Shown: in pieces, positions 6,350 through 38,648 of the stretch | Position numbering within the stretch: the first letter of the stretch is position 1 | Layout: every line of letters starts with the position of its first letter | Assembly (NCBI GenBank): GCA_965116875.1 | Contig: OZ220733.1 | Location: forward strand, 448,001 to 512,000 | From: Candidatus Latescibacterota bacterium | Lineage (GTDB): Bacteria; Latescibacterota; UBA2968; GCA-2709665 | DNA length: 64,000 nt | Direction: 5' to 3' | The notes under the pieces: generated by a model | What the model was told of the DNA's origin: nothing | The model's input: the letters and a program-made list of their open reading frames with translations, nothing else | The model's database searches: none | Made by a program: the position numbers and the translations under genes

Positions 6350-6692
6350 GTACGCTCCGGGAGACAAAGGTCGAACGCAGGACGTCGCTTCGACAAAACC
6401 TGTTCGCAACCGGATACCGACGAAGTTACCGACCTGTGACGTGATTGCAATAAAGGCGGTCCAACAGCGGAATCCCCGGCCGTCCGCTGACAACGTGGCT
6501 CCGCAGGCGAGGAACGGCGTCCGACTACGTCAGCCGAGGCAGGGTATACTGTCGAATAAACCGGAGGGCGCCGGTATTCCGGGATGGCGGCGCGGCGCGA
6601 GCTGATGGCACGGGGCGGTGAATCCTGCCCGCCGGACCGTACATTGCGACAGAAGGATCCGTGTTCCGGCAATGGGGGAACCGGATCGCCGC

Positions 6693-7547
6693 TTATCTGT
6701 CTTTCTTCAGAAGGACTTTCAATGGTCGTTTGGGCTTATAGAGGTAGATCACGTCGGCGGGGGCGAGCATGGTATTGAATATGGCGATTTCGTCGATCTT
6801 GCCGGAATAGGCGTAGTTGTTGAACCGGATGGCCAATTCATCCATGTTCCAGGTAATGTCGCGTCGGATATTCTTCTTCCGTCCGATTTCCTCGCCGTCG
6901 ACGAAGAGGGCGTATTCGGCATCGGCGTTTCCACTGTTGATATTGGACCAGGTGACCACAACGTGGCGCCATTGGTCGGACTTCCAGTTGAGCCTGTCGT
7001 ACCTGATCGTCCAGTCTTTTACCAGTTCCTCTCCGACAGTCTGCGTCTTGTCAGGATAGCAGCCGAATCGGAGTGCGCTGGGCGGCCGATCCTTCCGGTT
7101 CTTGTCGAAGTCTACGAATATGACGGCGTCGTCCCACTTCTTTCCCACCGAGAATGGCTCGGGAAACTTCTCCTTGAAGTCGCTGTTGGGATCTACGCTC
7201 AACCAGAAAGAAACGCCGCCGGACCAGGAGCTTCCGGCGTCGTACGGAAAGTTGCCTTTCGCCTGATAGCTGAGAAACGTCGCTCCGTTTGCGAATGAAA
7301 CGAAACCGTCCTCCTTCCCGCCGGTGAACTCATGCCGGGGCGGGCTGCTCGTTTCCATTGCAGCGACCGTGCCCTTTTTTTTCGTAAACGCCTCAAACCG
7401 GGATCTGTCGTCAAAGTTGGCGAAGAAGAGTACATTCGCCGCGAGCTTTTCCTCGATGATCTTTTCCGGACCGCCGCAGGAAGAAAGACAGAGTGCGGCA
7501 ACTGCGGTTGCGATCAGGTGCAGGAGGCGGGGAGCGCACCGGGTCAT
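6693..7547 (-). CDS. LamG/concanavalin-A-like domain lipoprotein
   Basis: Lipobox LSSC; VSFWL, WRHVVVTW, LFVDG and GKIDEIAIFN motifs. Confidence 0.85.
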   Translation of the reverse strand: MTRCAPRLLHLIATAVAALCLSSCGGPEKIIEEKLAANVLFFANFDDRSRFEAFTKKKGTVAAMETSSPPRHEFTGGKEDGFVSFANGATFLSYQAKGNFPYDAGSSWSGGVSFWLSVDPNSDFKEKFPEPFSVGKKWDDAVIFVDFDKNRKDRPPSALRFGCYPDKTQTVGEELVKDWTIRYDRLNWKSDQWRHVVVTWSNINSGNADAEYALFVDGEEIGRKKNIRRDITWNMDELAIRFNNYAYSGKIDEIAIFNTMLAPADVIYLYKPKRPLKVLLKKDR

Positions 7548-7734
7548 AAGTCACGTCTCCTTTCGGGAGAGGATAGGAACGATGAACCCGTTCGACTTGC
7601 CGTAACAAAGGGTCACCAATATAAAAAATGCGTGTTCGGGCGCAAGGGGTTTTTCTCGTTTCCGTTCTTCGGAGACGGTTTTCGGAAGCCGCGAAGGCCA
7701 GAAAAATCAGATGATTAGAGCAATGGAAAATGCC

Positions 7735-7763
7735 TTGACAACGGTTTTCTTATTTGTTATATC
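7735..7763 (+). promoter_or_regulatory. Sigma70 promoter (extended -10) for the giant permease operon
   Basis: TTGACA-17 nt-TATATC with TG at the extended -10 position. Confidence 0.65.
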
Positions 7764-7873
7764 CAAATTTTGTGAATTGCCCTGGACGGCCGGATTTTTG
7801 AACGAATCCTTCGGTCAACGGCGGATGGTTTCGGCGATCGTCCGCAATGCGGTCCGCACCGGTCCCGGGCTCG

Positions 7874-7923
7874 GAAGCTGTCTTGAAATTCCCAGCGGCC
7901 TTCGCATGGCTGCAGAAGCGCCG
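7874..7923. repeat. Family A repeat, left-end fragment
   Basis: GAAGCTGTCTTGAAATTCCCAGCGGCCTTCGCATGGCTGCAGAAGCGCCG matches 3813-3862. Confidence 0.75.
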
Positions 7924-8033
7924 TTGTGCATAAACGTGATGCAACCCCCGGCAGGGTCGCTGCGGGGTTCTTTGCCATGACTCGTCGACAGGGCTGAGCC
8001 GCCCTGGCATTATACAAGATTCAGGAGTTGAAA

Positions 8034-11000
8034 ATGCTGCGCAAACTCGGCGGCGTGATCCTTTGGCTGATCGCGATCTTTATGCTTTCGTCGGTTACCG
8101 TGTTCAATCCGGGACAGGTAACCGACTTTTTCGTTCGTGTATTCAATATCAGGCCGAGCGTGCCCCAGTTGCGTGAGGAAAGACCCTCCCTGAGGGACCG
8201 GCGCATCCAGGATTTCGCCAATCAGATCTCGGAGGATCGACTTCGGGAAACCGTATCCGCTCTGGCGGGGATGGGATCCCGCGTGCCAGGGTATCCGGGG
8301 CACAGGAAGGCCTTCGAATACGTCAGGAACCGTTTCGAAGTTCTGGGCCTGGAAGATATAACGGTCGAGGAACACCACGTTACGGTGCCGATCGACAAGG
8401 GCGCGACCCTGAAGGTCCAGGAGACCGGCGTCGCAATCCGGCTGTACGGACTCTGGCCCAATCATGTGCAGACGTCTTCCCTGCCCGATCAGGGCGTTAC
8501 CGGCGCGTTGATCGACGCGGGAGACGGCTCCTTCAAGGCGCTGAATTCGAAGCCGATGAAGAACAGCATCGCGTTGATGCAATTCGATTGCGGTCAGAAC
8601 TATCTCAATCCCCGCATGCTGGGCGCGCAGGCCATCATTTTCTACGATAACGGCGGCGTGAGCAGAGGACAGGCACTGGAGAAAATCCTCCAGGTACCGG
8701 TTGACGTACCGAGGTTCTGGGTGGAAAAAGACGACGCGGTGCGTCTTGCGGAACTGGCGGAGTCCGGCGCCACGCTCGTTAACGTTACGTCGAGAATGGA
8801 TTGGGAAAAGGTCCCCACCTGGAACGTCCACGCCACCCTGCCCGGCTCCGAAGATTACGTCACCGAGCGTGAAGAGCGGAAGTGGAAGGACGAGATGGTT
8901 GTCCTGAGTTCATTCTACGACGCCATCTCCGTCGTGCCGGCACTGGCCCCCGGCGCGGAGAACGCCACGGGGCTGGCCGCCCTTTTGGAAGTCGCGGCAG
9001 CGTTGAAAGATCAATCCTGGCTGGTCGATTCCTCCCGGCTTGCGCAACTGCCGAGGTATACGGTCAAATTCCTGGTGACGGGCGCCCATTTCCAGGGGCT
9101 GGCCGGCATCAACGATTTTCTTTTCCGGCACTCTCGGGAAAGCGACCACTTCCGTGAGAAGATACCGGACGAGGAGAAAATCGATTTCCGCCTGTACGTC
9201 GGGTTCGACCTGTCGAGCGAAACGGACCGGATCGCGAGTTTCTCACACGGTACGTTTATCAATCCGAACTGGTCTACCAACAATTACGAAAACAACCTGC
9301 TGGCGCCCTATGCGAAGAAATTCAACAAATACCTGGCCAAAGTCTATCCCGGCGAGGAACGCCACGTCGACGCCGTTGCGCCGCCGAAGAGGACCTGGAA
9401 GAACTACATGCCCATCAGGCTGGGATTCGACAGCGAAGCGGTCAAATTCGTCGGCAAGGAGGGAATTACGCTTGCGAGCCCGTCCACAACGCGCGAGAGG
9501 GTGGATACGCCCGCGGACCGGCTGGATCACGTCAACTTCAACAATCTTGCCCACCAGACGCGCACAGCAACGGGCATGCTGCTGAAAGCTCTGGAAGATC
9601 CCGAGTTCTTCAGGGTGTCCAAACTCAAGCTGCAGGATCTCGGGCACAGTATGAAGGGTCGAATCCTCTGGTTCGAACGGGATGCCGATTTCGCAATTCC
9701 ACGCGTACCCGTTCCGGGGGCCATCGTCACGTATCAACAGCCCGGACCGGTTGCGAGTTGCGGCGGAGTCCGCACCCTTATTGTGGACAAGACCACGGAA
9801 GGTCCCAGGTACGTAAGCGATCGCTCCACAGGGCCCTTGTTTGGCACAAAAGAGGAAGTGGATGCCACCGGCAGGTTCCGGTTCGATATCATGCGCAACC
9901 GGTTTACGAATCAGATACTGGCGTTTGAAATCGACGACAATGGCCGAATCATCTCGGCGCCGGACCTGGGCACGGAGGGCGAAGAGAAGTTCCCGACCAG
10001 GCAGGGCTACGGATGGTGGGAAAACGAGATGCTGGCGGTCCTTTTCAAGTGCCGGTCTCTCAGCGTGTTTGAAATCATCGATTCCAGCTACCTTTCCGCC
10101 CTCGATTTCATGACCGTGTTGAATGCGGGCGATTCACAGCCGATGGAATACGGTTATTACTATATTGAAAATCAGAGTATCAAAGAGGGCGACGTCACGC
10201 GGGCTGCGGTCGCGTTTACCGCCATGAACCCCACGACCGGGAGTCCCGATCCCATCAAGATTCTGATGAGTACGGGCCTTTTCGGCGTGAAATACCTGTT
10301 GACCAACGCACCTGAGGAGTTGCTGGAACAACCGGTGGACAAGTGGGAGGTGGACGACGAATTGCTGGAGCGGTCCCGGGGCGCGGGTTATCCGCCGGGC
10401 GTGATTCTTTACCCGTCCTACAAGGCCGCCAAGGATATGTGGGTGGTCGACGACATCCGGATGAAGCAGCTTGCCCAGTACGGAATCACGAACGCGCGGC
10501 TGGAGAAGCTGCACACGCACGCGGCGGACGCTTTGAAGCGGGCGCGGGAGAATCTGGCCGACTACGACTACGAAGGGTTTATCGCCGCGTCCAGAGAGGC
10601 GTGGGGTCTGGAAGCGCGCGGGTACCCCGAAGTCATGTCCACTGCAAACGACACGGTACGCGGGATAATCTTCTATTTCATTCTCCTGCTTCCGTTCTCC
10701 TTCTTCTGCGAGCGGCTGCTTTTCGGATTCCCGGATATCACCCGCCGTCTGGTCGGCTTTGCAGGAATCTTCGTACTGTTTTTCATCATCCTTCGATACG
10801 TGCATCCGGCCTTCAAGCTGAGCAGCACGCCCTACATAATCTTCCTGGCATTTGTGATCATGTCGCTTGGCGGCATTGCGATGTTCATTGTCGTTTCCAA
10901 GTTCGGCGAGGAAGTCAGGAAAATGAAACAGGCCTCCGCGGGCACGTACGAGGCGGACGTGGGACGGTTGAGCGCGACTGCCGCATCCATCATCCTGGGC

Positions 11001-12830
11001 ATTTCCAATCTGCGAAAACGACCTCTCCGCACGGGACTGACTGCGATTACCCTGACGTTGCTTACGTTCACGGCCCTTTCGTTTACATCGGTGCAGACGT
11101 CCATCAAATTCTATCGATTGCCGAGGGATAACCAACCGCCGTACCAGGGCGGCCTGGTACGGGATCGATCCTGGAGAGGATTGCAGGAATCCGTGCTTCA
11201 ATACCTGACCAGCGCATTCAAGGGCCGTGCGACCATCGTTCCACGCGCATGGTATCTTTCGCAGGTTCGCGGGGAACGGGCATACGTCAATTTTTCGCGG
11301 ATCACGGACCAGACTTCCTACCTGGGTTCAAGGGATACCTACGTCGATTTTGACGTTGGTATCACCACCGGAAAAGACAGCTTTGTCAACGGCTTGCTGG
11401 GACTCACGGCGGACGAACCCCGAATTACCGGCGTGGACCGATACCTGATGAGCGGACGATGGTTCGAACCCGGAGAGACGAATGTGTGCATTCTCCCGAA
11501 CGATCTCGCGGAACTGGTGGGTATCTTCCCGGAAGACGCCGGGAGTGCGAAGATCGAAATGCTGGGTGGCGTCTTCACCGTGATCGGAATCATGGACTCC
11601 GAGGGATTCAACAAATACAAGGATATGGACGACGAAAAGCTCACGCCGGTTGATACCGTAAAGGAGAAGGACGACCTGGCAGACGCCCAGGACCAGGATC
11701 CGAGGGTTGTCGCAGCGGCGCCGATCGAGACGTTCACGCACCTGGAATCGACCAACGTGATGATCCTGCCTTATGACTACGTCCGCAATATCGGTGGCAC
11801 TCTGAACTCCGTCGCCCTGGCGAACTTCGTGGATGCCCAGGGCAATGCCAGGACGAACTTCCTGCCGGACGTCGAAGAATTCATGACGCGGGTATCCCTG
11901 ACGATGTTCGTGGGCCACGAAAACAAAGTCACGGTTTACAGTTCCATCGGTTCGACCTCTCTATCGGGATTGGGCACGCTCTTCATTCCCATTCTGATTG
12001 CCGCGCTGATCGTGCTGAATACGATGATGGGCGCGGTGTACGAGCGGTTCAACGAAATCGGGATATACTCGGCGGTGGGGCTGGCGCCCAATCACATTGC
12101 GGCGCTGTTTCTGGCTGAGGCGACGGTATTCGCCACGGTAGGCGCCGTGTTCGGATATCTGATCGGACAGGTACTGGTTCTTGTGCTGTTTACCCAAGCG
12201 CAAGCGCAGGGACAACTGCTCAGCCTTGAATTGAACTATTCTTCGTTATCGGCCATTTCGTCCACATTGATTGTCATGGCAACGGTATTCCTCTCCACCC
12301 TGTACCCTGCAAAAAAGGCCGCCGATATGGCTGTGCCGGACGTGACGCGAAAGTGGGAGTTTCCGGAACCCGAGGGCGACAGATGGGTGTTCGATTTTCC
12401 GTTTACGGTTGGCGGCGCGGAAGTCCTGGGAATGTACACGTATCTGACACGTGTCTTCGAGTCATACGGCGAAGGATCCGTGGGCGATTTCGTGGCCGAC
12501 TACGTCCGTTTCACCTCACAGGACATGCAGGGTGAACCGCAGTACGAAATCAATCTCACGTGCTGGCTTGCGCCCTACGACCTGGGCATCAGCCAGGAGG
12601 TGGCATTGCTTGCCATTCCAACCAGGGAACACAATATTTACAAGATCGAGGTCGTCATCAACCGGCTGAGCGGTGACGTGGCCTCCTGGAAACGGATTAA
12701 CCGGGGGTTCCTGAACGTCCTCCGGAAGCGATTCCTGGTCTGGCGAACCATTCCACCCGAGTTGAAGCACCAGTATGCGGACGAGGGCGCCCGCATTCTG
12801 TCGGACAAGGTGGAAGAGGCGGTTGTATAG
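8034..12830 (+). CDS. M28-peptidase-like / MacB-FtsX-type permease fusion protein (about 1,598 aa)
   Basis: AGGAG RBS; N-terminal TM; SRVPGYPG..AFEYV and APGAENATGLAALLE (M28-like); TM bundle; NLRKRPLRTGLT and VYERFNEIGIYSAVGLAP..I..LFLAE (FtsX permease motifs). Confidence 0.85.
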   Translation: MLRKLGGVILWLIAIFMLSSVTVFNPGQVTDFFVRVFNIRPSVPQLREERPSLRDRRIQDFANQISEDRLRETVSALAGMGSRVPGYPGHRKAFEYVRNRFEVLGLEDITVEEHHVTVPIDKGATLKVQETGVAIRLYGLWPNHVQTSSLPDQGVTGALIDAGDGSFKALNSKPMKNSIALMQFDCGQNYLNPRMLGAQAIIFYDNGGVSRGQALEKILQVPVDVPRFWVEKDDAVRLAELAESGATLVNVTSRMDWEKVPTWNVHATLPGSEDYVTEREERKWKDEMVVLSSFYDAISVVPALAPGAENATGLAALLEVAAALKDQSWLVDSSRLAQLPRYTVKFLVTGAHFQGLAGINDFLFRHSRESDHFREKIPDEEKIDFRLYVGFDLSSETDRIASFSHGTFINPNWSTNNYENNLLAPYAKKFNKYLAKVYPGEERHVDAVAPPKRTWKNYMPIRLGFDSEAVKFVGKEGITLASPSTTRERVDTPADRLDHVNFNNLAHQTRTATGMLLKALEDPEFFRVSKLKLQDLGHSMKGRILWFERDADFAIPRVPVPGAIVTYQQPGPVASCGGVRTLIVDKTTEGPRYVSDRSTGPLFGTKEEVDATGRFRFDIMRNRFTNQILAFEIDDNGRIISAPDLGTEGEEKFPTRQGYGWWENEMLAVLFKCRSLSVFEIIDSSYLSALDFMTVLNAGDSQPMEYGYYYIENQSIKEGDVTRAAVAFTAMNPTTGSPDPIKILMSTGLFGVKYLLTNAPEELLEQPVDKWEVDDELLERSRGAGYPPGVILYPSYKAAKDMWVVDDIRMKQLAQYGITNARLEKLHTHAADALKRARENLADYDYEGFIAASREAWGLEARGYPEVMSTANDTVRGIIFYFILLLPFSFFCERLLFGFPDITRRLVGFAGIFVLFFIILRYVHPAFKLSSTPYIIFLAFVIMSLGGIAMFIVVSKFGEEVRKMKQASAGTYEADVGRLSATAASIILGISNLRKRPLRTGLTAITLTLLTFTALSFTSVQTSIKFYRLPRDNQPPYQGGLVRDRSWRGLQESVLQYLTSAFKGRATIVPRAWYLSQVRGERAYVNFSRITDQTSYLGSRDTYVDFDVGITTGKDSFVNGLLGLTADEPRITGVDRYLMSGRWFEPGETNVCILPNDLAELVGIFPEDAGSAKIEMLGGVFTVIGIMDSEGFNKYKDMDDEKLTPVDTVKEKDDLADAQDQDPRVVAAAPIETFTHLESTNVMILPYDYVRNIGGTLNSVALANFVDAQGNARTNFLPDVEEFMTRVSLTMFVGHENKVTVYSSIGSTSLSGLGTLFIPILIAALIVLNTMMGAVYERFNEIGIYSAVGLAPNHIAALFLAEATVFATVGAVFGYLIGQVLVLVLFTQAQAQGQLLSLELNYSSLSAISSTLIVMATVFLSTLYPAKKAADMAVPDVTRKWEFPEPEGDRWVFDFPFTVGGAEVLGMYTYLTRVFESYGEGSVGDFVADYVRFTSQDMQGEPQYEINLTCWLAPYDLGISQEVALLAIPTREHNIYKIEVVINRLSGDVASWKRINRGFLNVLRKRFLVWRTIPPELKHQYADEGARILSDKVEEAVV

Positions 12831-12920
12831 GCAGGCACTAAGCCAACCGGATCGACGGCGACCGGCGGGCTGACCCGCAACCCGCGAGTGACTCACTGCT
12901 CCCAACGAGGAGAGGCAGTT

Positions 12921-14969
12921 TTGGCAATCGAACCCAAGGATCCCAGGGAAGACCAGGAACAGTACGAAAACATCATGCCGGTGGACGCGCCGTTCGAAGA
13001 TGGCTTCAATATGAAGACCTTGTGGGCGACGCTCTTCGTGGGTCTGGTGATGCTGCCCGGCGCCATCTATCTCGGGCTGGTTACCGGGCAGAACATGGCG
13101 GGCGCGTCCGAATGGGTGACCATCATCCTGTTCCTGGAAATCGCCAAGAGATCCTTCGTGCGGCTGAAGACCCAGGAAGTCCTGGTCATCTACTGGGTTG
13201 CCGGCGGATTGCTGGGCGTGGGCGTTCGACTGGGCAGCGCGGCACTGGTGTACGGGGGTCCGTTCGGCGGATTGATCTGGGATCAATATCTTATCCAGTC
13301 TCCCGCGGCGAGGGGGCTCGCGGATTTCATCCCTGACTGGGTGGTGCCCAGAATCAGCGAACATCCCGAGATTTACGCCGAACGTACGTTTCTGCACGCC
13401 GCATGGTTGAAGCCGATCGGCATCCTCGTTGCATTGACGCTGCTTAGCAATACCGCGAGACTGTCGCTTGGGTACGTGATGTTTCGAATTACCAGCGACA
13501 TCGAACGGTTGCCGTTTCCGCTGGCGCCCGTGCAGGCACGCGGGGCAACCGCGCTCGCCGAGACGTCGGCCAAGCAGGAAGGCTGGAGATGGCGGGTATT
13601 CAGTACCGGAGCGTGCATCGGACTGGTCTGGGGCCTTCTGTACGTTGTCGTCCCCACTCTTTCCAGTATTTTCCTGACCGATACGGTTCAGATCCTGCCC
13701 ATTCCCTGGATCGATTTCACGGAACAGATCAAGACCATCCTGCCTGCGGCGCTGTTTGGAATTGCGACCGACCTGGGCCACCTGATCGTCGGGTTCGTGT
13801 TGCCGTTCTGGGTGGTCATCGGATCTTTCGCCGGCGCCGTTCTGGGGAACCTGGTCGTAAACCCGTTCCTTTACAGATGGGAAATCCTGGACCGCTGGTC
13901 CGCGGGCATGACGGCGATCCCGACGTCGATCTCCAACCAGTTCGACTTCTGGCTGAGTTTTGGAATCGGCACGTCTTTCGTCATCGCGTTCACCGGATTC
14001 TACCAGGTGTTTCGGGTGCTTATGGAGCAACGCCGCCAGAAACAGCAGACAGGGCATCATACGTCCGGCATTGACCTCGAGGACCTGCCGGAGGGCCGCT
14101 CGGACATAAAGATGGTCTACCCGATTCTGTTCTGGGGCGCCGCCACGTTGGGCTTTATCGTTATGTGCCAGATGCTTGTTCCGGAATTCCACTGGGGCTG
14201 GGTGGTGTTTTTCGGGCTCATCTACACCCCGATTTCCTCCTATATCGGCGCTCGAATGATCGGTCTGACCGGAAGTCCGTACGGGGCGAGTATTCCCTAT
14301 CTGCGTGAAGCGGGCATTCTTCTCTCCGGATACAAGGGGGTGGCGGTCTGGTTCGCTCCCCTGCCACTGCACGACCACGGCCTTGCCGTTCCAACGTATA
14401 AACAGATGGAGCTGACAAAAACGAAATTCGTCAGCTACGTGAAATTGACCGCGGTGACCATGGTCGTCATCTTCATCTTCAGCTTCATCTTCTGGGAATT
14501 CATCTGGCGGCTCGGCCCCATTCCGTCGTCGAGTTATTACTATGTGCAGACGTTCTGGCCGTACGACGCCACAATGACCACGATGTGGCTCAAGTCGACG
14601 ATGCCGGACCTCGAAGGGCATGGAACCGTCGGCGTCGAACTCCTGAAGGATATCATCAAGCCCCATATCATCGGCGCAGGATTTGCCGTTGGCGGTCTCA
14701 TGTATCTCATTCTGGCGGCGTTGAAGGCGCCCACGCTGTTCTTCTTCGGTTTTGTCGGCTCGCTTGCCACGTGGCCGCATTTCGTGATTCTGCAGTTTGC
14801 CGGTGCGCTGCTTGGACGTTACTACTTCTCCAGGCGTTTCGGGGAATCCAAATGGCGGGCGTACGCGCCCATTCTGCTGGCCGGATACTACTGTGGAATG
14901 GGGCTCATCGGAATGACTTCGGTTTCCGTTGTGCTGATTTCAAAAGCCGTTTCGCAGGTTGTCTTCTAG
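12921..14969 (+). CDS. OPT-like polytopic membrane transporter
   Basis: GAGGAGAGG RBS followed by TTG; roughly 14-17 hydrophobic segments; ERLPFPLAPV motif resembling OPT/DUF6785 proteins. Confidence 0.75.
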   Translation: MAIEPKDPREDQEQYENIMPVDAPFEDGFNMKTLWATLFVGLVMLPGAIYLGLVTGQNMAGASEWVTIILFLEIAKRSFVRLKTQEVLVIYWVAGGLLGVGVRLGSAALVYGGPFGGLIWDQYLIQSPAARGLADFIPDWVVPRISEHPEIYAERTFLHAAWLKPIGILVALTLLSNTARLSLGYVMFRITSDIERLPFPLAPVQARGATALAETSAKQEGWRWRVFSTGACIGLVWGLLYVVVPTLSSIFLTDTVQILPIPWIDFTEQIKTILPAALFGIATDLGHLIVGFVLPFWVVIGSFAGAVLGNLVVNPFLYRWEILDRWSAGMTAIPTSISNQFDFWLSFGIGTSFVIAFTGFYQVFRVLMEQRRQKQQTGHHTSGIDLEDLPEGRSDIKMVYPILFWGAATLGFIVMCQMLVPEFHWGWVVFFGLIYTPISSYIGARMIGLTGSPYGASIPYLREAGILLSGYKGVAVWFAPLPLHDHGLAVPTYKQMELTKTKFVSYVKLTAVTMVVIFIFSFIFWEFIWRLGPIPSSSYYYVQTFWPYDATMTTMWLKSTMPDLEGHGTVGVELLKDIIKPHIIGAGFAVGGLMYLILAALKAPTLFFFGFVGSLATWPHFVILQFAGALLGRYYFSRRFGESKWRAYAPILLAGYYCGMGLIGMTSVSVVLISKAVSQVVF

Positions 14970-14990
14970 TTTTGAAGGCCTGCGACGCAT

Positions 14991-15075
14991 TAGCAGCCCG
15001 TTGAAAAAGTCCATCCGGTCTACCTGCCAGGACTTCACTGGCAGACCTGCAGAGCGACTTTATCAACGGACTGTT
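14991..15075. repeat. Family B repeat copy with nested hairpin
   Basis: TAGCAGCCCGTTGAAAAAGTCCATCCGG...GCGACTTTATCAACGGACTGTT. Confidence 0.8.
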
Positions 15076-15178
15076 TTGGAACGCCGCCCGGATTCCGGTT
15101 GTCTAAGGAGCACCGTAGACGCCCGATCCGGGCCGAATTACATCCGCCCGGACCGAATCCAATCTCATGGAGGTTTCA

Positions 15179-15652
15179 ATGACACGAAGCGAAAGGACGA
15201 CATGTCTGGCGCTGATTGCGTTCATCGTATTGGCGTTTGCCGTGGATGCGGCGGCACAGCCTGACCGGCGGGGCGGACGTGAACGGGGTCGGCGCGGAGG
15301 CGCGGCCCGTATCAGAATGATGTTGCCCCTGGAGCAGACGCTGAGCTTTCTGGCGTTTAACGACAAGATTGCGTTGAAAGACGAACAACTGATTCAAGTT
15401 CGAAACGCCCTTATGGAGATTCATGGACAGCGGGCCGAACTGCAGAATGAAATGCGGAATGGCGCCGACCGGCAAAAAATCATGGAGAAGCTCGGCCGCC
15501 TTCGCAGTTCGATGTTTGAGAAAGTCAAAGAAGTGCTGGACGACAGCCAGGATGAGATTCTGGATGGCTATCTGGAGAGAATGCGGCGAGGGTTTCAACG
15601 CGGGCGCGGCGGCGGCCGGCGGGGCGGCGGTCCACCGGGCGGCGGCGTTTGA
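15179..15652 (+). CDS. Exported helical protein, Spy/CpxP-like, with Gly/Arg-rich ends
   Basis: GGAGG RBS; signal peptide ending AAA-Q; LKDEQ and LDDSQ resemble LTXXQ motifs. Confidence 0.65.
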   Translation: MTRSERTTCLALIAFIVLAFAVDAAAQPDRRGGRERGRRGGAARIRMMLPLEQTLSFLAFNDKIALKDEQLIQVRNALMEIHGQRAELQNEMRNGADRQKIMEKLGRLRSSMFEKVKEVLDDSQDEILDGYLERMRRGFQRGRGGGRRGGGPPGGGV

Positions 15653-15661
15653 GGTTTTCCG

Positions 15662-17047
15662 ATGAATCTACAGGAGGTTGGCGAACGACTCGAGAAGCCC
15701 TTCACGTTTGCCGTGGTGGGCGACACGCACTTCTTACATCCCAGGTTCGGACAACCAGCGGCCGGGACCGGCAGTTCGTTTCGGCCCCTGCAGGTCGACC
15801 AGTACCTCGAAAGCGTTCAATATGTCCTGATGCCGATGATGGATTCCCTGAAGGAGGTTTCCCCGGAATTCCTGGTCATAACCGGAGACCTGGTGGAGGG
15901 GCATCACGACGTCGAACTCGCCGTTGATGAGATCAAGGAAGGGCTGGAATTTTTCGAGGGATACGGGATTCCCCTCCTGTTCGCGTGCGGAAACAGGGAC
16001 CGGGTTGAGGCATTCGACAGCGTTGTTCGCCCGTATCTGGGGCGCTGGTTGGACAGTACCCCCAGGGAGCGGTATTTCTTTCTTGACGTCGCCGGCTGCC
16101 GGCTTGTTTTCCTCGACACCCCCACGTGGAAGAGGAAAGGCGCACAACGGAAATGGCTGGAACTCACGTTGAGTGACCGGGAGGCCGCTGGAATCGATCG
16201 GACGTTTCTGTTCGGACATCATCCCGTCTGGCCGCTTGCACGGGCCTTTTTCACCAACATCGACCTCCATCTCGATTTACCCGAAATTCTACAGAAACAT
16301 CCTGTAGACGCTTATTTTTGCGGGCATACGCACAATCAGAACGTGTTGCTTCACCGTACGGACGGCCGACCGGTTCTGCAATGCATGTGCGCTTCAATCG
16401 GCCTGTCCAGTGAGATGCCAACGCCGCTGGATCGTGTGCAGGACGTGCTGCCGGATCCCCAGGACGTGCTGGCCTGCTGGCCAGGATACCTTGAGAATAC
16501 GGCGCCAGGATGGTTTATCGTTCAGGTGGGCCCGGACTCGGTTGAAACGTCGTGGCACCACTTGAACAGAGGTGTTGAGACACGACTCGTCTGGCATCGT
16601 CCCGGAAATCTCTCTGCATTCGAAAAAATGGACCATCCGCCGGATGCCCGGCTGATTTACGACGACTTGAATCATATTCGGCGCGCTTCCCTGCGGTTGT
16701 GTGGATGGCATGCGCTGCGCCAGGACAAAAAGGTGTTCCTCAACGGCGCGCTGGTTGGCAACCTCCCTCCCGCGAACGACTACGCGCCGGTCCGGATGGA
16801 TTTGCCGGCGGAATGCCTTGAACATCTGCGCATGGAGAACCGGCTCGAGATTCAGGTGCCGCGGAACGAGGCCTGTACGCTGGGCAACTTCATACTCGAA
16901 GCGGTCTTGCCGGGTGGGAGATTTGTGCGAACCCGCCCCACGGGGGAAATTTTCACCTGGTCCGACAGATGGGGTGCGTGGAATTCAAGCTGGCTGATGA
17001 AGATGAAACCGGGACGGCCGGCTTCAACATTGTTGTGTTTTCAATGA
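15662..17047 (+). CDS. Calcineurin-like metallophosphoesterase with C-terminal beta-sandwich
   Basis: GDTH, TGDL, GNRD, GHH and GHTH motifs. Confidence 0.85.
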   Translation: MNLQEVGERLEKPFTFAVVGDTHFLHPRFGQPAAGTGSSFRPLQVDQYLESVQYVLMPMMDSLKEVSPEFLVITGDLVEGHHDVELAVDEIKEGLEFFEGYGIPLLFACGNRDRVEAFDSVVRPYLGRWLDSTPRERYFFLDVAGCRLVFLDTPTWKRKGAQRKWLELTLSDREAAGIDRTFLFGHHPVWPLARAFFTNIDLHLDLPEILQKHPVDAYFCGHTHNQNVLLHRTDGRPVLQCMCASIGLSSEMPTPLDRVQDVLPDPQDVLACWPGYLENTAPGWFIVQVGPDSVETSWHHLNRGVETRLVWHRPGNLSAFEKMDHPPDARLIYDDLNHIRRASLRLCGWHALRQDKKVFLNGALVGNLPPANDYAPVRMDLPAECLEHLRMENRLEIQVPRNEACTLGNFILEAVLPGGRFVRTRPTGEIFTWSDRWGAWNSSWLMKMKPGRPASTLLCFQ

Positions 17048-17125
17048 GTTGACCTGCCCTGCGTCAGCGCCACCCACACCGGTGCGGAGGATGCGTCGCC
17101 GGACCTCAGGAGTTCGGAAGTCTCC

Positions 17126-19204
17126 ATGGACAGTCAGCGATCTGCAAACAGGCTGGTACACGAGACCAGTCCCTATCTGCTGCAACACGCGCACAACCCG
17201 GTAGACTGGTATCCGTGGGGCGACGAAGCCTTTGAACGGGCGAGGAATGCAGACCGGCCCATTTTCCTTAGTATCGGATACTCGGCATGTCACTGGTGCC
17301 ACGTGATGGAGAGGGAGTCGTTTGAGAACGAAGCAATCGCAGCCGTGATGAACCAGTTCTACGTTAACGTCAAGGTCGACCGCGAAGAACGTCCGGACGT
17401 GGACGAAATCTATATGAGCGCGGTACAGATGATGACCGGCGCCGGAGGATGGCCGATGAGCGTGTTTCTCACACCCGACGGAACACCGTTCTACGGCGGA
17501 ACCTACTTCCCTCCCGACAGCAGATATGGACGACCCGGATTCCCCGACCTGCTTCGCTCCGTGGCGACGCATTACAAGGAAAACAGGGGCAAAGTGGGAG
17601 AGACGGCAGAACGCCTGATGGCCGGTTTGAAACGGCTGACCGACCTGAGAAACCTTGATGGAGAGTTAACGGGAGAATTGTTCTCCGACGGGTATTCCCG
17701 GATTGCCCGCAATTTCGACTGGGAAAATGGAGGCTTCGGATCGCAGCCGAAATTTCCGAATTCCATGAATCTATCGGTCTTTCTGCGGGAATTTGAGAAA
17801 AGCGGAGATCGCAATGCATTGGATATGGCGCTTCTCACCCTGCGGAAGATGGCGCGGGGAGGGATATACGATCATCTGGGCGGCGGATTTCACCGGTATT
17901 CGGTTGACCATCGCTGGCTGGTCCCCCACTTCGAGAAAATGCTGTATGACAATGCCCTGTTGACCCCGCTCTATCTGGAAGCCTTCCAACACTCCGGAGA
18001 GCCGCTGTTTCGGCAGATTGTGCAGGAAACACTGTCCTATGTCATTCGTGAAATGACCGATCTGCAAGGCGGATTCTACTCCACTCAGGACGCGGACAGC
18101 GAAGGGGAGGAGGGCAGGTTTTTCGTCTGGGACCAGGAGGAGGTGAACGCACTGCTGGGCCAGGAAGAGGGCCGATTGTTCTGCCGGTACTTCGATGTCC
18201 GCCCGGAGGGTAATTTTGAACACGGGAAGAGCATTCTGAATATTCCGGTTGAAGCGCCTGAATTGGCCAGATTCCTGGACGTGGACCTGGAGCGCCTGGA
18301 CGGTGTGACGCGGCGCGGACGGGAGGTATTGGCAGAGGTCCGCGAGAGGAGGACCAGGCCGGACCGGGACGAAAAAATCCAGGTGAACTGGAACGGGCTG
18401 ATGATCTCGGCTTTTGCGCATGCCTATCAGGTTCTCGGACAACCGGAGTATCTGGAGGCGGCACAGAACGCTGCCCGCTTCATACTCGACAACATGGTGA
18501 CGGAGTCCGGATGTCTACTGCACACGTACAACGCCGGGCGGGCGCGGTTCCCGGGCTACCAGGACGACTATGCCTTTTTCAGCAGCGGACTGCTCGACCT
18601 CTATGAGGCCTGCTTCGACCCTCGATGGCTGAATGCGGCAGAGACGCTCACGGAGACGATGCTCCGGGAATTCTGGGATCCGGAGCAGGGTGGTTTCTTC
18701 TTTACCGGAGGGTCGAATGAAAAGCTGATCGTCCGCTCAAAGAACCCGTACGACAACGCAATCCCCTCCGGAAATTCGATGGCCGTTGTCTCGCTGATGC
18801 GCCTGGGTACGATTCTCGACCGGCCGGATCTGTGGAAAAAGGCGGAGCAGACGCTGAAGCTGTTCGAACCGATGCTCAGAGAAATGCCGTCCGGATTCGG
18901 CCAGATGCTTTGCGGCCTGGATACCTTCACCAGACGTCCGTTTGAGATCGTACTGGTGGGCGATCCGGAGGATTCAGCGACGAAAGATCTCCTGAAGACG
19001 GCATACGGACGCCCGGCATCCAGCCGTGTGATCGTTCTTGCGGGTCCGGACGAGAGAGAAGATCTGTCACGGCGCATTCCATTGCTTTCCGACAAGAAGG
19101 CGGTCAATGGAAAACCTACCGCGTACGTGTGCAGAAATTCGGTCTGTTCGGCGCCGGTGACAACACATACCGAACTGGACGCATTGTTGCGGAAACCATC
19201 GTGA
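17126..19204 (+). CDS. YyaL/SPATA20-like thioredoxin-domain protein (DUF255)
   Basis: [29 protein letters not shown] and [11 protein letters not shown] motifs. Confidence 0.95.
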
Positions 19205-19233
19205 GGAGAACAGAATACAGACAGGAGGATGAG

Positions 19234-19779
19234 ATGGCATCGGTATTGGTGGTAGGAGATGGTCCGGGCGGTCTGAGCGCCGCCCTGTTTCTGGCCAAGA
19301 ACGGCATGGATGTCGCCGTGTTCGGTCAAAATACAACCCCCATGCATAAGGCCATGCTGTACAACTATCTGGGGATTCCCGAGTTGACCGGGACCGAATT
19401 TCAACGCATCTCCCGGAATCAGGTCGCGGCACAGGGTGCAAGCATTGAGGACGTGCAGGTCGCGGGAATCGAAAAGACCCCGAGCGGATTCACGTTGACC
19501 ACGGAGGGCGGGGTCACCCGCGAAGGGCAATATCTGATACTGGCCGCCGGCACCAACGTGAAACTCGGCGTGAGTATCGGTCTGGAAAGAGGCCCGGATG
19601 GGCTGGAATGCGACAGGGACGGACGTACGTCGGTTGAAGGACTCTACGTTGTGGGATGGAGTACGCGGCTGCGCAAGACGCAGGCGATTATTTCCGCCGG
19701 CCAGGGCGCGTCCGCCGCGCTCGATATTCTGTCAATTGAGGCTGGCGAGGACGTACACGATTTCGACGTGGTGTCGTGA
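19234..19779 (+). CDS. Short FAD-dependent oxidoreductase (thioredoxin-reductase-like, FAD domain only)
   Basis: AGGAGG RBS; VVGDGPGGLSAA, ILAAG, TSVEGLYVVG and QAIISAGQG motifs; no CxxC or NADPH domain. Confidence 0.85.
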   Translation: MASVLVVGDGPGGLSAALFLAKNGMDVAVFGQNTTPMHKAMLYNYLGIPELTGTEFQRISRNQVAAQGASIEDVQVAGIEKTPSGFTLTTEGGVTREGQYLILAAGTNVKLGVSIGLERGPDGLECDRDGRTSVEGLYVVGWSTRLRKTQAIISAGQGASAALDILSIEAGEDVHDFDVVS

Positions 19780-19886
19780 AACTCCCTGTAGATGCACCCT
19801 CGTGAGCTTCGCCCATCGAAGGCACGGCGGCGGGCCGGCAGGGGTTGAAACGGTTCCACCGGTGTCCGTGCAATTCCTTCGTGTGG

Positions 19887-20456
19887 TCAAAAGTACCTGG
19901 GTGTCTTTCGGGGCGCGGCCGGTTTCGGAGGCGCCTCGTTTTCAGGGATGCCGTGGCTTTCGATGATGCCGCGAACCACGTGGACCGGAAGGCCCATTCG
20001 AACGGCCAGCGCCATTGAATCACTTGGACGCGCGTCCATTTTGAACGTCGTTCCATCCGGACCCTGCAGGGTGAGTACGGCGAAATATGTACTCCCCAGA
20101 CCCCCTTCTTCCAGTGGGCGAAGTTCGTCGATGACAATGGATTTGAGACGGACACCGGCCTCTTGCAGCACATTGTGGAACAGATCGTGGGTGAACGGGC
20201 GGGGAAACGTCTCGTCCTTCAGCTTGCGCCAGATTGCCATCGCTTCGCAGGGACCGATCCATATCGGCAGAAGTCGTGCGGTCTCGCTGTTTCGCAGAAA
20301 AACGATGTATTGATCTTCAGAATCCCGCCCGACCTGATGGACCTCGGTCCTGACCAGGTCCTTTTCCGATGGATGTGCGGCAGGCGCGAGGACACCGCCC
20401 AGACACAAACATGAAGCGCAGAAGTACATCGCCGCAGAACGGGTTCTATCGTACAT
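19887..20456 (-). CDS. Bifunctional nuclease family protein (DUF151)
   Basis: LLPIWIG..EA, RPFTHDL and DARPSDSMALA motifs. Confidence 0.92.
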   Translation of the reverse strand: MYDRTRSAAMYFCASCLCLGGVLAPAAHPSEKDLVRTEVHQVGRDSEDQYIVFLRNSETARLLPIWIGPCEAMAIWRKLKDETFPRPFTHDLFHNVLQEAGVRLKSIVIDELRPLEEGGLGSTYFAVLTLQGPDGTTFKMDARPSDSMALAVRMGLPVHVVRGIIESHGIPENEAPPKPAAPRKTPRYF

Positions 20457-26923: not shown

Positions 26924-27814
26924 GTGGCAAAACAGGATCGGTCCAGAGTACACGCGTTGTTGAAAACGGCCGCCGGCCTCTCCGGCGAGATTGGCGCAGA
27001 TCTCGTGCTGCTGGTGGCGGATTCCGGCGTGACCAGACCGGCGGTGCAGTCCCTGAATGATACCTGTCCGGTGCTGCTGGTCACCCGGCGCAATCGGTTT
27101 CTCCAGGACGTAGAGAGTCTGGGAGTTCGCAGGTTGAAGCTCGATTTCGACGATGTCTCCCATCTGGAACGGGTCCGGCAGGGCATTGTGCTGGGCATGG
27201 AGGGCGGTCACATCAAGAAGGGAAGCCTGCTGATATGCCTTGTAAATGTCATGGAACACGGTGGCGTGGACACACTCATGACCGTGGACACCCGCCGGGA
27301 ATTCAAGGACTTCGATTCGGAGAGCCTGGCTCAGCTGGCAGACGATCTGCCCGTTGGAGTGGTCAAGTCCGTGCTGGATATCGCCCTTGACATCGGACGT
27401 GAGGGCCGGGAAGGAGAGCAGGTCGGCACCCTCTTCGTGCTGGGCGACTCCGACCGCGTCCTGGCCAATTCACGCGTGATGACGTATGATCCGTTCCGCG
27501 GGTATTCAAGACTGGAGCGGAACATCTGCGATCCCGATAACCGCGAAGGCGTCAAGGAGGTTGCCCTGATGGACGGCGCCTTCATCGTCCATCAGGATGG
27601 TGTCATACGCTCAGGTTGTCGCTATATCACCTCCTTCGTGAGGGGTCTTACCCTGCCCAAGGGGTTGGGTGCACGTCATGTGGCCGCGGCAGCGGTTTCC
27701 AAGAACACCAATGCGATCGCGGTGGCGGTTTCGGAGTCTACGGGTACGGTTCGGGTATTCAAAGGCGGCGAGATCGTCCTGCGGCGAGACCCGGGCCACC
27801 GCATCGCCCGGTAG
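26924..27814 (+). CDS. DacZ-type diadenylate cyclase (N-terminal PK-C-like domain + DisA_N/DAC domain)
   Basis: EGREGEQVGTLFVLGD, MDGAF, GLGARH.AAA and VSES.GTV motifs. Confidence 0.88.
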   Translation: MAKQDRSRVHALLKTAAGLSGEIGADLVLLVADSGVTRPAVQSLNDTCPVLLVTRRNRFLQDVESLGVRRLKLDFDDVSHLERVRQGIVLGMEGGHIKKGSLLICLVNVMEHGGVDTLMTVDTRREFKDFDSESLAQLADDLPVGVVKSVLDIALDIGREGREGEQVGTLFVLGDSDRVLANSRVMTYDPFRGYSRLERNICDPDNREGVKEVALMDGAFIVHQDGVIRSGCRYITSFVRGLTLPKGLGARHVAAAAVSKNTNAIAVAVSESTGTVRVFKGGEIVLRRDPGHRIAR

Positions 27815-27849
27815 GCGGTTGATTCCTGTTTCCCATTTAAAGAGATTCG

Positions 27850-28353
27850 ATGAATATCCGTCTGATCCAGCGCGAGAGCGTAATGTTGGCCGTTGTCGGG
27901 GACAGTGTTCAACCTGTAGCCCGGGTCGCGAGGGCGTTCCCCAGAAGCAGCCCCGACCGCTACGTGGGACTTTTGGGAGAAAACGGGAATGAAATCTGTC
28001 TGATTGATGATCCCGGTACACTGGACGCGGATTCTCAGGAAATATTGAACGCCGCGCTGAAGGACGCCTATTTTATTCCACGAATCCTGGAAATCCTGTC
28101 GGTGACGCCTCGCGGCACGGGCGGTGAGTGGACCGTTGTCGCGGAAGATGGCGAGATCGTGTTCCGAACGCAGGACCGGGAGGCGCTGGACGGTTCGGAG
28201 CCGCCGTCGATTACGGTAACGGACGAGAACGGCCGGCGATATCGGATCGAGGACTACTGGGCAATGGACAGGGAGAGTCGCAAGACAATCCGTGATCTTG
28301 TACCGGATGAGGTCTTGCGGCTTCGGGCCAGGGTCGTCAGGGTTCGTCGTTAG
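27850..28353 (+). CDS. DUF1854 domain protein
   Basis: RAFP...P..Y, YFIPRI and TDENGRRY motifs. Confidence 0.8.
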   Translation: MNIRLIQRESVMLAVVGDSVQPVARVARAFPRSSPDRYVGLLGENGNEICLIDDPGTLDADSQEILNAALKDAYFIPRILEILSVTPRGTGGEWTVVAEDGEIVFRTQDREALDGSEPPSITVTDENGRRYRIEDYWAMDRESRKTIRDLVPDEVLRLRARVVRVRR

Positions 28354-32800: not shown

Positions 32801-33554
32801 CCGGCGCAACGCCCGCGATGCCCACGCCGTTGTCTGTTACGGCCGCGGCAATGCCGGCAACACGGGTGCCGTGGCTGGATTCGTCCATGGGATCGTTGTC
32901 GGGCGAGAGGTAGTCTCCCTTCGCCGGGAGCGTCGGGGTGTGGGTGAAGTCCCATCCGCGAACGTCGTCCACGTACCCGTTGTTGTCGTCGTCAATGCCC
33001 GGCCGTCCGGATGCTTCAGCGGTATTGATCCAGATATTGTCTGCCAGGTCTTCGTGGGTATAGTCCACGCCGGAGTCTATGATGGCGACAACGACCGCCT
33101 GTTCGCCCGGGGGCAGGCCATCCAGAAGGACCTGCCACCTGATCTGCTCCAGACCGTACTGATCGGGCAGTCGGGGATCGTCGGGCGCGGCGTGATGGGA
33201 AAAGAGGTGGACGAGCTGTGCGTAGAGGACGTCCGGATGCTCCATGTAGGCGGCCGCAGCTTCCACGGGACTTGCGCCGGGGTCAATCTCGAGACGGTAT
33301 ACCTGCGCCAATCCATGGGCACGTTTGGCCGGGACCACGGGTGGTTGAAACACGGGCTCCGGCGTGCCCGCGCCAAACCGGACATGCAGGCTTGCCAGGC
33401 TTCCCGCAGCGGTCTTGGCCGCCGCCGATCTGAACCTGACGAGGATCTGTCCCGGAGAGTACGCGGGCTGCGCCGTGACGGAACTGAAGGCAGGAAACCA
33501 TATCAAGACTTGCAATATGGCTGATATCGCCTGCATCCGGATGGTTCGATTCAA
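29805..33554 (-). CDS. Secreted S8 (subtilisin) peptidase with FG-GAP/VCBS repeats, FN3/Ig domains and an EF-hand/dockerin-like C-terminus
   Basis: IIDSG, HGTRVAG and GTSFAAP catalytic triad; repeated DxDGDG motifs; paired DFDDSGRVDFSDF / DLDDDGNVAFSDF. Confidence 0.93.
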   Translation of the reverse strand: MNRTIRMQAISAILQVLIWFPAFSSVTAQPAYSPGQILVRFRSAAAKTAAGSLASLHVRFGAGTPEPVFQPPVVPAKRAHGLAQVYRLEIDPGASPVEAAAAYMEHPDVLYAQLVHLFSHHAAPDDPRLPDQYGLEQIRWQVLLDGLPPGEQAVVVAIIDSGVDYTHEDLADNIWINTAEASGRPGIDDDNNGYVDDVRGWDFTHTPTLPAKGDYLSPDNDPMDESSHGTRVAGIAAAVTDNGVGIAGVAPEAALMSLRAGVTLQSDLTFLEEDDLAAAILYAVENGAHIINMSWGGPESAFLIRDVVRYAAANGLVLVSSAGNSGEFGLSYPAAMDETIAVGATAPLDRIAAFSSRGVPLDLVAPGAGTLTTLPGNRYAHASGTSFAAPHISGLAAMVLSRRPRLTAEQVRSLLTASVNDLGVEGWDSGSGAGRIDAATLLEKTTEWTDPPVVQFDHPRTDDGATRNVDIVARADGPNVADYELFWGTGEDPQIWIRLSGGPPGSNIRHSWTPRIQADTTAILRLRARLTDGATLEDRVRIGIRRALPVISKASFAPILIGNRQTYHAEWHTQRPTHGALLFRSPAETREDTLFSEVIYTRHRVTLPPDLAPGPLEYRIMARDAAGQAVSSDPLTFEVNPLRLSSRGFVQVDALPDGYLANQTADFDKDGRPEVVLMPYVSGRPYNTNLIMERGDDGVFTTVFRTNDSFLPWALGDANNDGRTDLLGMNFPRTNIARLRLFDGTPFPSETLLDLPEFQGGEIADVDGDGRNEIVALSALTRDIRVLKSTREGAFIGVASLSNPTEGSNWPGLRLVVADLNGNGRKEILSGDDDGDLWIHEALHSGGFAQTWKLAGSDSTNTHWIGGAADIDDDGDVEFAVARAAEDRNDALNGRWNLEIYSANGPSSYALEWSIRVSGVISTGNGIAKGDVDGNGVPDLAVCLLPDLYLIRATGPDSYEPFWHETVSLTYRPLIADLDGDGNKELLYNRDGAVRAMERTEPGFRRMLQLVHAFPLGPDSARLAWTLLEDGAAYRILRGVDGSSLSTVVDRLTGNTYTDTGLTENRVYRYVVVATLPNGDEIHSETHTVRPNPAPELIRVEVLHENNLSLTFSEPMAAGTADPHGYSVAPDLGHPTSVILDRTSRRALLSFSNPFEAGREYAVFSSMAADTSGVPLASRYRNVSFASGQTTFPSAAIADFDDSGRVDFSDFLLFAGAFGSTDPRFDLDDDGNVAFSDFVRFALLFGKVV

Positions 33555-33657
33555 GGTCCGGCTCCAGGAATGTGACTCTTCGATACTCTGCGAATCCGAT
33601 CCGCCTGTCTTCGGCGGCCTCTTCGGTATGGACGGAATATGTGGCCGGAGGTTCCGC

Positions 33658-34854: not shown

Positions 34855-34930
34855 CTGAGTCCCCGTTGACCGGCGGTGCGGTGAAGTCGAGCGGGATCCG
34901 TCGAAGGGAGTTGACGTGTAACGGGAGACG

Positions 34931-38512: not shown

Positions 38513-38648
38513 GGGGCACCTTGAAAGACGGGGACTCGAGGGTGTCACTCAGGATAGCGCTCAAGCGGCGGCAGGACACGCGACGTCCCTCTCCCGGCCG
38601 GAGAGAAGGTGGCCATCGGATGACGTTTCGGTGCAGTTGATTCGAGCA

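Follow-up and report, generated by a model that had tools for sequence, protein, structure and literature searches.

A conserved pairing of a giant FtsX-type protein and an OPT-fold carrier in Latescibacterota, with a candidate ATPase motor encoded elsewhere in the genome

The window analysed here is a 64,000-nucleotide stretch of a Candidatus Latescibacterota genome (contig OZ220733.1, positions 448,001 to 512,000, or G000:C1:448001-512000 in our numbering); the source genome comprises 5.45 Mb in a single contig. Positions 8028-14969 of the window are filled, according to the open reading frame (ORF) listing, by two ORFs on one strand, which encode a giant membrane protein with an FtsX domain and a polytopic partner with an OPT-like fold. 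Together they make up a genuine and conserved module for which literature searches found no description; it is most aptly classed as a variant of the type VII ATP-binding cassette (ABC) systems working with an OPT-fold carrier. Our leading interpretation, held with about even confidence, is that the giant is a type VII ABC mechanotransducer whose motor is encoded in trans and which acts with the carrier, probably in uptake. The locus would then be one receptor/carrier pair within a multi-part envelope machine.

Architecture of the giant protein

An earlier first-pass annotation of the window had divided the giant into a transmembrane (TM) anchor, an M28/PA-like ectodomain, a TM bundle, a MacB-like domain, an FtsX domain and a tail, and Pfam, hydropathy and fold matches agree with that parse (Table 1). 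With residues numbered from the TTG at 8028, Pfam places Peptidase_M28 at 284-512 (29.1 bits, cut-off 21.3), FtsX (PF02687) at 1319-1433 (53.6 bits, cut-off 25.5) and PA at 157-237 (17.1 bits, under its cut-off); PF12704 is precomputed on several homologs. By hydropathy, the anchor is followed by an ectodomain of about 850 residues and by TM helices at 878-898, 908-926 and 934-955. The C-terminal half then consists of TM1, a periplasmic domain of about 290 residues, TM2-4 (1312-1425) and a 175-residue cytoplasmic tail. Both hydropathy and the predicted model give the arrangement of an FtsX-type permease: four TM helices, the first two separated by a periplasmic domain of the MacB type.

The predicted model of residues 865-1600 (mean pLDDT 73.7, pTM 0.44) is matched best in Foldseek by MacB (5gko, E 5e-10), followed by LolCDE, 5xu1, YtrEF, HrtBA, BceAB and YbbAP. 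The VIA comparison gives a similar set, with YtrF at Z 16.5, HrtB at 15.3, MacB at 14.7 and FtsX at 14.4, and the periplasmic domain by itself superimposes on that of MacB (3ftj) with Z 12.1 and a root mean square deviation (rmsd) of 3.7 Å over 181 residues. A coupling helix, the ATPase docking site in such permeases, is present between TM2 and TM3, where it aligns to the 'ERTxEIG' stretch of MacB and YtrF. This segment (1334-1356) has the highest share of invariant columns in the giant, 60.9%, followed by TM1 with 52.6%, as compared with 16-18% in the periplasmic parts and 15.6% in the second ectodomain region (561-875).

The cytoplasmic tail is modelled with a pLDDT of about 75-89, and its domain spans model positions 586-711, corresponding to protein residues 1450-1575. 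Its closest relatives in VIA are a Bet v 1-like protein (1vjh, Z 9.3) and KA1, the Aha1 C-domain and SLMO1 (Z 8.5-8.8); these values lie near the stated VIA background of 7-8, so the helix-grip/KA1 likeness is only a lead. The domain was detected in 1,438 cluster representatives, and in almost all cases it is the C-terminal part of a protein of 1,450-1,900 aa; a protein atlas search with it returned no usable match. We considered whether the tail could be a degenerate ABC ATPase and rejected this, as no chain consisting only of a nucleotide-binding domain was among the 50 matches listed, and those that cover the tail are of the helix-grip/KA1 type.

The first-pass annotation described a transport system with no ATPase. 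If it works without one, the FtsX module would be a relic, the giant a tethered receptor for a proton-driven carrier, and the motor pair described below a machine used elsewhere. The giant's own conserved cytoplasmic domain, with its non-nucleotide-binding fold, is compatible with such an accessory role, but the finding that the coupling helix and TM1 are the most conserved parts of the giant speaks against it. Together with the distribution of the motor genes, treated below, this makes an ATPase-independent system improbable in our estimation.

The peptidase-like head

A head profile built from 13 giants matches the aminopeptidase 2ek8 (E 1.5e-14) and, weakly, transferrin receptor (6.5e-5) and nicalin (2e-4); a PDB search with a single head sequence found nothing. 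In the alignment to 2ek8, HHD is replaced by (F/Y/H)-Y-D, GANDDASG by GAE(N/S)A.G and the EE pair by H-F, and the replaced metal-site positions are invariant in all 13 aligned giants. The head does not have the complete ligand set of a canonical two-zinc site (His, Asp, Glu, Asp/Glu, His) with its catalytic Glu. By comparison with M28 motifs, the fourth metal ligand is probably kept as D394 (DLSS) and the last His probably changed to D493 (VDTP.D). The 'pseudo-peptidase' of the first-pass annotation is supported in that the M28-like head lacks the canonical catalytic set. Since the replacement residues are themselves invariant, the pocket may still bind something, and the conserved Y297, E311, H354, D394 and D493 are candidate residues for it.

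The M28 fold raises the question of whether the giant could be a regulator similar to FtsEX, in which ATP hydrolysis switches the head to cut periplasmic peptides and the OPT-fold carrier imports the products. FtsEX systems control periplasmic hydrolases, and the name 'peptide transporter' that NCBI gives to the partner family would fit as well. However, the canonical ligand and catalytic positions of M28 are replaced in 13 of 13 aligned giants, and we regard this possibility as very unlikely.

The OPT-fold partner

The partner matches no Pfam or NCBIfam family at E<=0.1, including DUF6785 and DUF6784 (PF20581 and PF20580), and none of 17 aligned relatives matches any Pfam family at E<=0.01. 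For some homologs, a PF03169 match is on record among the precomputed annotations. The predicted model is of low confidence (mean pLDDT 55.9, pTM 0.60), and its best Foldseek match is barley Yellow Stripe 1 (HvYS1, 7wsr; E 3.8e-6, TM-scores 0.54/0.60), with the next match at E 0.22. In VIA, 7wsr_A aligns with Z 18.3 and an rmsd of 5.0 Å over 505 residues; it is the sole chain of 48,161 to reach Z >=8, the next best having Z 7.3. The description as an OPT-like carrier in the first-pass annotation consequently holds for the OPT/YSL fold of the model and not for membership of the family, as there is a fold match to Yellow Stripe 1 without a sequence match to PF03169. At the profile level the partner family is distantly related to DUF6785/DUF6784 (hhalign probability 83.8%, E 7.9e-6, 194 columns).

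Conservation of the pairing

Relatives gathered at E<=0.001 comprise at least 1,121 full-length giants and at least 2,177 partners. Pairing was assessed in 80 giant loci from reference genomes and in 80 partner-seeded loci from metagenome contigs; the window's own clade is represented by 25 fetched loci (L001-L022, L028, L030 and L052). An OPT-like or DUF6785/6784 gene is present in 75 of the 80 giant loci, and in the five without a carrier (L050, L056, L057, L076 and L080) the available DNA on one side is shorter than 1.5 kb. Conversely, a giant is found in 52 of the 80 partner-seeded loci, and in 15 of the 18 that have at least 9 kb on both sides. The view of the first-pass annotation that the giant and the OPT-like protein belong together is borne out at the level of gene neighbourhood, and the neighbourhood analysis that it had proposed finds homologs of both genes together, with DUF6785/6784 and PqqD-like partners in relatives.

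The source genome itself encodes four giants and 25 OPT-superfamily permeases, the latter including the products of 23 DUF6785/6784 genes. The window giant has an OPT-like gene next downstream, paralog 2 has DUF6785/6784 genes on both flanks, and paralog 3 has one upstream, as does paralog 4, which in addition has the one other OPT-like gene of the genome on its downstream side. These four DUF6785/6784 neighbours match their Pfam models at E 1e-96 to 1e-103. In a tree of the last 700 residues of the giants, the order of the partner genes is fixed within each clade, being giant-OPT-like (the window's), DUF-giant-DUF, giant-DUF-OPT-like or OPT-like-DUF-giant. Some partners are enlarged: that of L027 (14700-17579, 959 aa) contains some 290 inserted residues in which a 'W..T..GL' unit recurs, suggestive of a propeller on visual inspection, and that of paralog 4 has 808 aa.

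The two kinds of protein also occur as a natural fusion. Among the best 150 carriers of the tail domain, P0381 (2,120 aa) joins a giant (23-1457) to a DUF6785/6784-type protein (1481-2107), and the fragment P0382 has the same junction. For the window's partner type (P0002), no longer fused forms were found, which is weak evidence. The longer giants of L046, L056 and L064 were examined as possible carrier fusions and discarded, as their extra length comes from about 200 aa inserted behind the M28 region.

An unlinked candidate motor

As the first-pass annotation had stated, no ABC ATPase is encoded in the window; none of the genome's 67 ABC_tran matches falls inside it. Its description of the system as having no ATPase is not supported by relatives, some of which carry a stripped-down FtsX-type permease (mini-FtsX) and a LolD/MacB-type ATPase in the same gene run. 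L027 and L031, whose group adjoins the window's clade on the tree, have the order giant, OPT-like, 323-aa protein, PqqD-like, mini-FtsX (229 aa, without a periplasmic domain) and ATPase (255 aa). In L197 and L198 the order is DUF6785/6784, giant, OPT-like, a 369-aa protein (x369), PqqD-like, mini-FtsX and ATPase.

The source genome has homologs of these genes at other positions. Its mini-FtsX gene (C1:750095-750799, 58% identical to that of L027) lies about 290 kb from the locus and adjoins an ATPase gene (C1:749332-750039) whose product is 76% identical to that of L027. A PqqD-like gene and a 369-aa gene, homologous to those between the OPT-like and mini-FtsX genes of L027, L197 and L198, are paired at 4.511 Mb, and the 141-aa PqqD-like protein matches weakly to a lasso-peptide PqqD chaperone model. 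A second ATPase of the same MacB/LolD type, 55% identical, is encoded directly upstream of the DUF6785/6784, giant and OPT-like genes of paralog 4. The candidate cognate ATPase genes, whose products could bind the giant, are hence C1:749332-750039 and C1:3889933-3890721; both products score best against LolD, MacB, YbbA, DevA and FtsE models and fall under every equivalog cut-off.

In all 20 genomes sampled from different families, the ATPase gene comes directly after the mini-FtsX gene. The gene before the pair encodes an S41 peptidase in 8 of the 20, as in the source genome, and a PqqD-like protein in 5. The S41 peptidase may be an additional component of the system, or its position may indicate another job for the mini-FtsX pair. 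The possibility that this pair is the divisome FtsEX was rejected, since a separate FtsE-FtsX-EnvC-like operon is present at 1.818 Mb.

Giant and mini-FtsX were surveyed in one set of 151 genomes of the phylum. Of these, 137 have the giant and 131 the mini-FtsX, the latter never with more than a single match, and 130 have both. Neither is found in 13 genomes, which are all 13 of family f10; in five f10 genomes that are 94-97% complete, the OPT-like and DUF6785/6784 families were also not found. In the source genome the DUF6785/6784 profile does match, and the OPT-like family was run there as a single protein, not as a profile. The eight discordant genomes comprise seven with the giant only (60-89% complete) and one with the mini-FtsX only (57% complete).

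This distribution bears again on a function independent of ATP. The lack of an ATPase within 10 kb in all 25 loci of the window's clade agrees with it, as does the frequent position of the mini-FtsX pair beside an S41 peptidase gene. Against it, giant and mini-FtsX are concordant (both or neither found) in 143 of 151 genomes, and in L027, L031, L197 and L198 the giant and the motor pair lie in one gene run. The 'no ATPase' of the first-pass annotation is most likely an effect of gene dispersal. The data fit an ancestral operon that was split as giant/carrier pairs multiplied, leaving one shared motor, although they do not prove it.

Returning to a motor encoded in trans, we hypothesize that the giant, a type VII (MacB/Lol/FtsX-type) ABC permease with a non-canonical M28/PA-like periplasmic binding head and a helix-grip-like cytoplasmic domain, probably pairs with the mini-FtsX and LolD/MacB-type ATPase of the single-copy, unlinked pair at C1:749332-750799. 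The four giant paralogs of the genome would all depend on this one motor pair. The FtsX stalk and head, moved by ATP, would load or gate the OPT/YSL-fold carrier beside them, to which the head may hand over its ligand, and transport would most likely be uptake of an oligomeric nutrient.

Two further observations concern ATPase and permease genes in this genome. About 50 FtsX-domain matches are present, including those at G000:C1:1755642-1791894, and many are duplicated ADOP-type permeases of 800 aa in tandem arrays; with few ATPase genes near these arrays, unlinked ATPases may be common in the organism. At L098:4845-7643 (G000:C1:4467345-4470143), a 674-aa DUF6785/6784 gene is followed without a gap by a gene for a 257-aa ABC ATPase; no FtsX or other permease gene lies between the two, and an NMT1-like binding-protein gene is on the opposite strand.

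Direction of transport, expression and habitat

All 23 DUF6785/6784 genes lie outside the window, the nearest at C1:423431-425398, and only four of them adjoin giants. The 58 neighbours of the other 19 include PhyH-type dioxygenases (four loci), aminotransferases and GFO/IDH/MocA oxidoreductases, as well as an enolase-superfamily enzyme, UxuA, a sulfatase and amidohydrolases. Such catabolic-enzyme neighbourhoods are the setting of importers, and DUF6785/6784 looks like the organism's general nutrient-importer family. Paralog 2 sits between proteins of 1,060 to 1,238 aa without obvious signal peptides. Because DUF6785/6784 genes lie in catabolic islands, we favour uptake of an oligomeric nutrient with modest confidence.

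The machine could instead act outward, with the ABC module expelling, extracting or processing an envelope substrate, for example a peptide delivered by the PqqD-like protein, and with the OPT-fold protein as an export or flipping channel whose product the head passes outward. All solved relatives of the giant that we found are exporters, extractors or periplasmic mechanotransducers, complete operons include a gene for the PqqD-like protein, which has a peptide-recognition fold, and the conserved gene set contains no solute-binding protein. On the other side, the only solved structural relative of the partner, HvYS1, is an importer, and the genome's DUF6785/6784 paralogs lie among cytoplasmic catabolic enzymes; nor was a gene for a precursor peptide or modifying enzyme noticed in the operons read, which was not a systematic search. 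We consider outward action doubtful on balance, yet export or extraction stays a serious rival because the characterised type VII ABC systems act outward or in the periplasm.

The giant family has many members in Latescibacterota, also in sponge- and reef-associated ones. The stretch itself is present in full in two runs, and sponge and coral-reef metagenomes contain relatives that are 95-99% alike. In one sponge metatranscriptome (run X20), contigs at least 99% alike cover parts of the giant gene at 10350-10599 (2 differences), 11337-11677 (1 difference) and 12506-12754 (0 differences), and of the partner gene at 14263-14514 (2 differences). Many bins are without cover, and no contig bridges the gap between the two genes. 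The sign of expression is weak because DNA carry-over is possible in an RNA library.

Locus organization and neighbouring genes

The giant most likely starts at ATG 8034, with AGGAG 6 nt before it, and the partner at TTG 12921, with GGAGAGG 5 nt before it, which gives the partner the length of most of its homologs. The ribosome-binding sites (RBSs) that the first-pass annotation called strong are present. The TTGACA promoter that it assigned to the locus is weaker as a claim: a perfect TTGACA exists at 7735-7740, but promoter-like sites in 6500-19500 are at chance level (4 observed against 4.6 +/- 1.8 in shuffled sequence). Its two-gene unit stands as far as two same-strand ORFs go, but the terminator scan lists no plus-strand site in the interval 14969-15167, which separates the partner's stop codon from the following gene. 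Since three same-strand genes lie before the strongest terminator-like hairpin, the transcription unit may exceed two genes. These three encode an exported 161-aa protein, a cytoplasmic metallophosphoesterase and a DUF255 thioredoxin-like protein, with a signal peptide on the first only.

A divergent LamG lipoprotein gene had been suggested as a possible member of the system. It is syntenic in 24 of the 25 loci of the window's clade and in 24 of 80 overall, so its synteny is confined to that clade. Housekeeping neighbours are about as well conserved, so the synteny does not mark it as part of the system. No riboswitch that would hint at a substrate was detected in an Rfam E-value scan of 6500-20000.

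Elsewhere in the window, positions 26924-28353 hold a gene for a 296-aa diadenylate cyclase of the DacZ type and, after it, one for a 167-aa DUF1854 protein. About 15-24 kb downstream of the locus, on the minus strand at 29805-38548, are genes for an S8 subtilase of 1,249 aa that contains FG-GAP repeats, for an MFS transporter and for a heparinase II/III-like protein of 999 aa.

Table 1. Features of the locus and of related loci in the source genome (window positions unless a locus is named)
Feature	Position	Strand	Basis	Remark
Giant membrane protein	8034..12830	+	ORF, RBS, ATG, Pfam PA/M28/FtsX	1,598 aa
N-terminal TM anchor, residues 7-25	8046..8102	+	hydropathy 2.31, sequence	without lipobox Cys
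PA/M28-like head, residues ~60-560	8205..9707	+	Pfam, profile matches, motif columns	metal-site positions remodelled
Second ectodomain region, residues 561-875	9708..10652	+	Pfam and PDB-profile searches empty	no family match
Three extra TM helices preceding the FtsX module	10653..10895	+	hydropathy; model helices 11-34, 40-61, 71-106	
Cytoplasmic linker with elbow helix, then FtsX TM1 (1004-1022)	10896..11093	+	hydropathy, model	
MacB-type periplasmic domain, residues 1023-1310	11094..11957	+	structure match to MacB periplasmic region 3ftj	
FtsX TM2, coupling helix (1334-1356), TM3, TM4	11958..12302	+	Pfam FtsX; MacB/YtrF alignment over ER..EIG motif	
Conserved cytoplasmic C-terminal domain, residues 1426-1600	12303..12827	+	model, fold search	alpha+beta, helix-grip/KA1-like
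OPT/YSL-fold polytopic partner	12921..14969	+	ORF, RBS, TTG start	682 aa
Three downstream genes, same strand	15167..19204	+	Pfam; in 20-23 of 25 clade loci	possibly co-transcribed
Strongest terminator-like hairpin of the region	19266..19285	+	7-pair stem, 6 G-C pairs, then T-rich tail	
Divergent LamG-domain lipoprotein	6693..7547	-	Pfam Laminin_G_3, sequence	lipobox LSSC; context only
S41 (Ctp-type) peptidase with PDZ	L081:7883-9628 = G000:C1:750883-752628	-		directly upstream of mini-FtsX/ATPase pair
PqqD-like (141 aa) and 369-aa no-family protein	L082:6254-7828 = G000:C1:4511254-4512828	-	homology	
Canonical-looking FtsE, FtsX, EnvC-like operon	L200:1087-3933 = G000:C1:1817587-1820433	-		likely divisome

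Discussion

The known roles of type VII ABC systems are export, extraction and periplasmic switching, whereas OPT/YSL proteins are known as stand-alone proton-driven importers. The giant shares with the former (MacB, LolCDE, FtsEX, YtrEF, HrtBA, YbbAP and BceAB) the FtsX fold of four TM helices, the long stalk, the MacB-type domain between TM1 and TM2 and the ER..EIG coupling motif, and LolD/MacB-type ATPases are encoded in the genome. It differs from them in its 850-residue M28/PA-like ectodomain, the three extra TM helices before the FtsX module and the helix-grip-like cytoplasmic domain after it. Other differences are that the ATPase is unlinked in the source genome, that the likely second permease is a mini-FtsX lacking a periplasmic domain, and that an OPT-superfamily permease is a constant neighbour. 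The head resembles non-catalytic M28B-type ectodomains (transferrin receptor, nicalin) and PA-domain aminopeptidases (2EK8) in following an anchor with a PA and an M28-like domain, but unlike them it is fused to an ABC permease.

The partner has the overall fold of OPT/Yellow Stripe-like transporters (PF03169; HvYS1, 7WSR/7WST); unlike these, it has 12-14% identity, no Pfam OPT match and a tie to an FtsX giant. DUF6785/DUF6784 proteins stand in for it next to paralogs 2 to 4, and in P0381 a protein of this type is joined to a giant, but the window partner matches neither model and most DUF6785/6784 genes of the genome have no giant beside them. Literature searches on DUF6785, DUF6784, PF20580 and PF20581 found no paper, and searches on FtsX with Peptidase_M28, also with OPT added, found no relevant one.

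Several points weigh against an importing system with a motor in trans. To our knowledge the characterised type VII ABC systems are all outward-acting or periplasmic, and none imports. The model of the partner is of low confidence. Three fully flanked OPT-like loci (L116, L131 and L170) have no giant within 10 kb, and 19 of the genome's 23 DUF6785/6784 genes have no adjacent giant, indicating that OPT-superfamily carriers need none in cis. An ATPase or mini-FtsX gene lies within 10 kb in 0 of the 25 loci of the window's clade and in 0 of the 80 metagenome loci, and cis-linkage is seen in only four genomes, which belong to three families. As the mini-FtsX pair is frequently preceded by an S41 peptidase gene, it might have a different role. 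Finally, the joint absence of giant and mini-FtsX is that of a single family, one evolutionary event, and its member genomes are not independent.

We tentatively extend the proposed motor in trans to a hybrid transporter class, in which a single-copy motor is shared by paralogous pairs of FtsX giant and OPT-fold carrier. The shared motor would consist of the mini-FtsX and the LolD-like ATPase, with the PqqD-like and 369-aa proteins as cytoplasmic partners, a scheme that would resemble the service of many outer-membrane receptors by one TonB-ExbBD motor. If this is true, it would be the first importing type VII ABC system and the first ATP-coupled OPT-fold carrier.

A conserved and sometimes fused pairing of type VII ABC and OPT-type proteins would be a coupling principle that we have not found described. 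With the candidate motor genes now located, reconstitution becomes feasible. The system is widespread, as the numbers of giants, partners and tail-domain representatives given above attest, and with four giants and 25 OPT-superfamily permeases in one genome, it may be a main route of nutrient uptake in this uncultured phylum.

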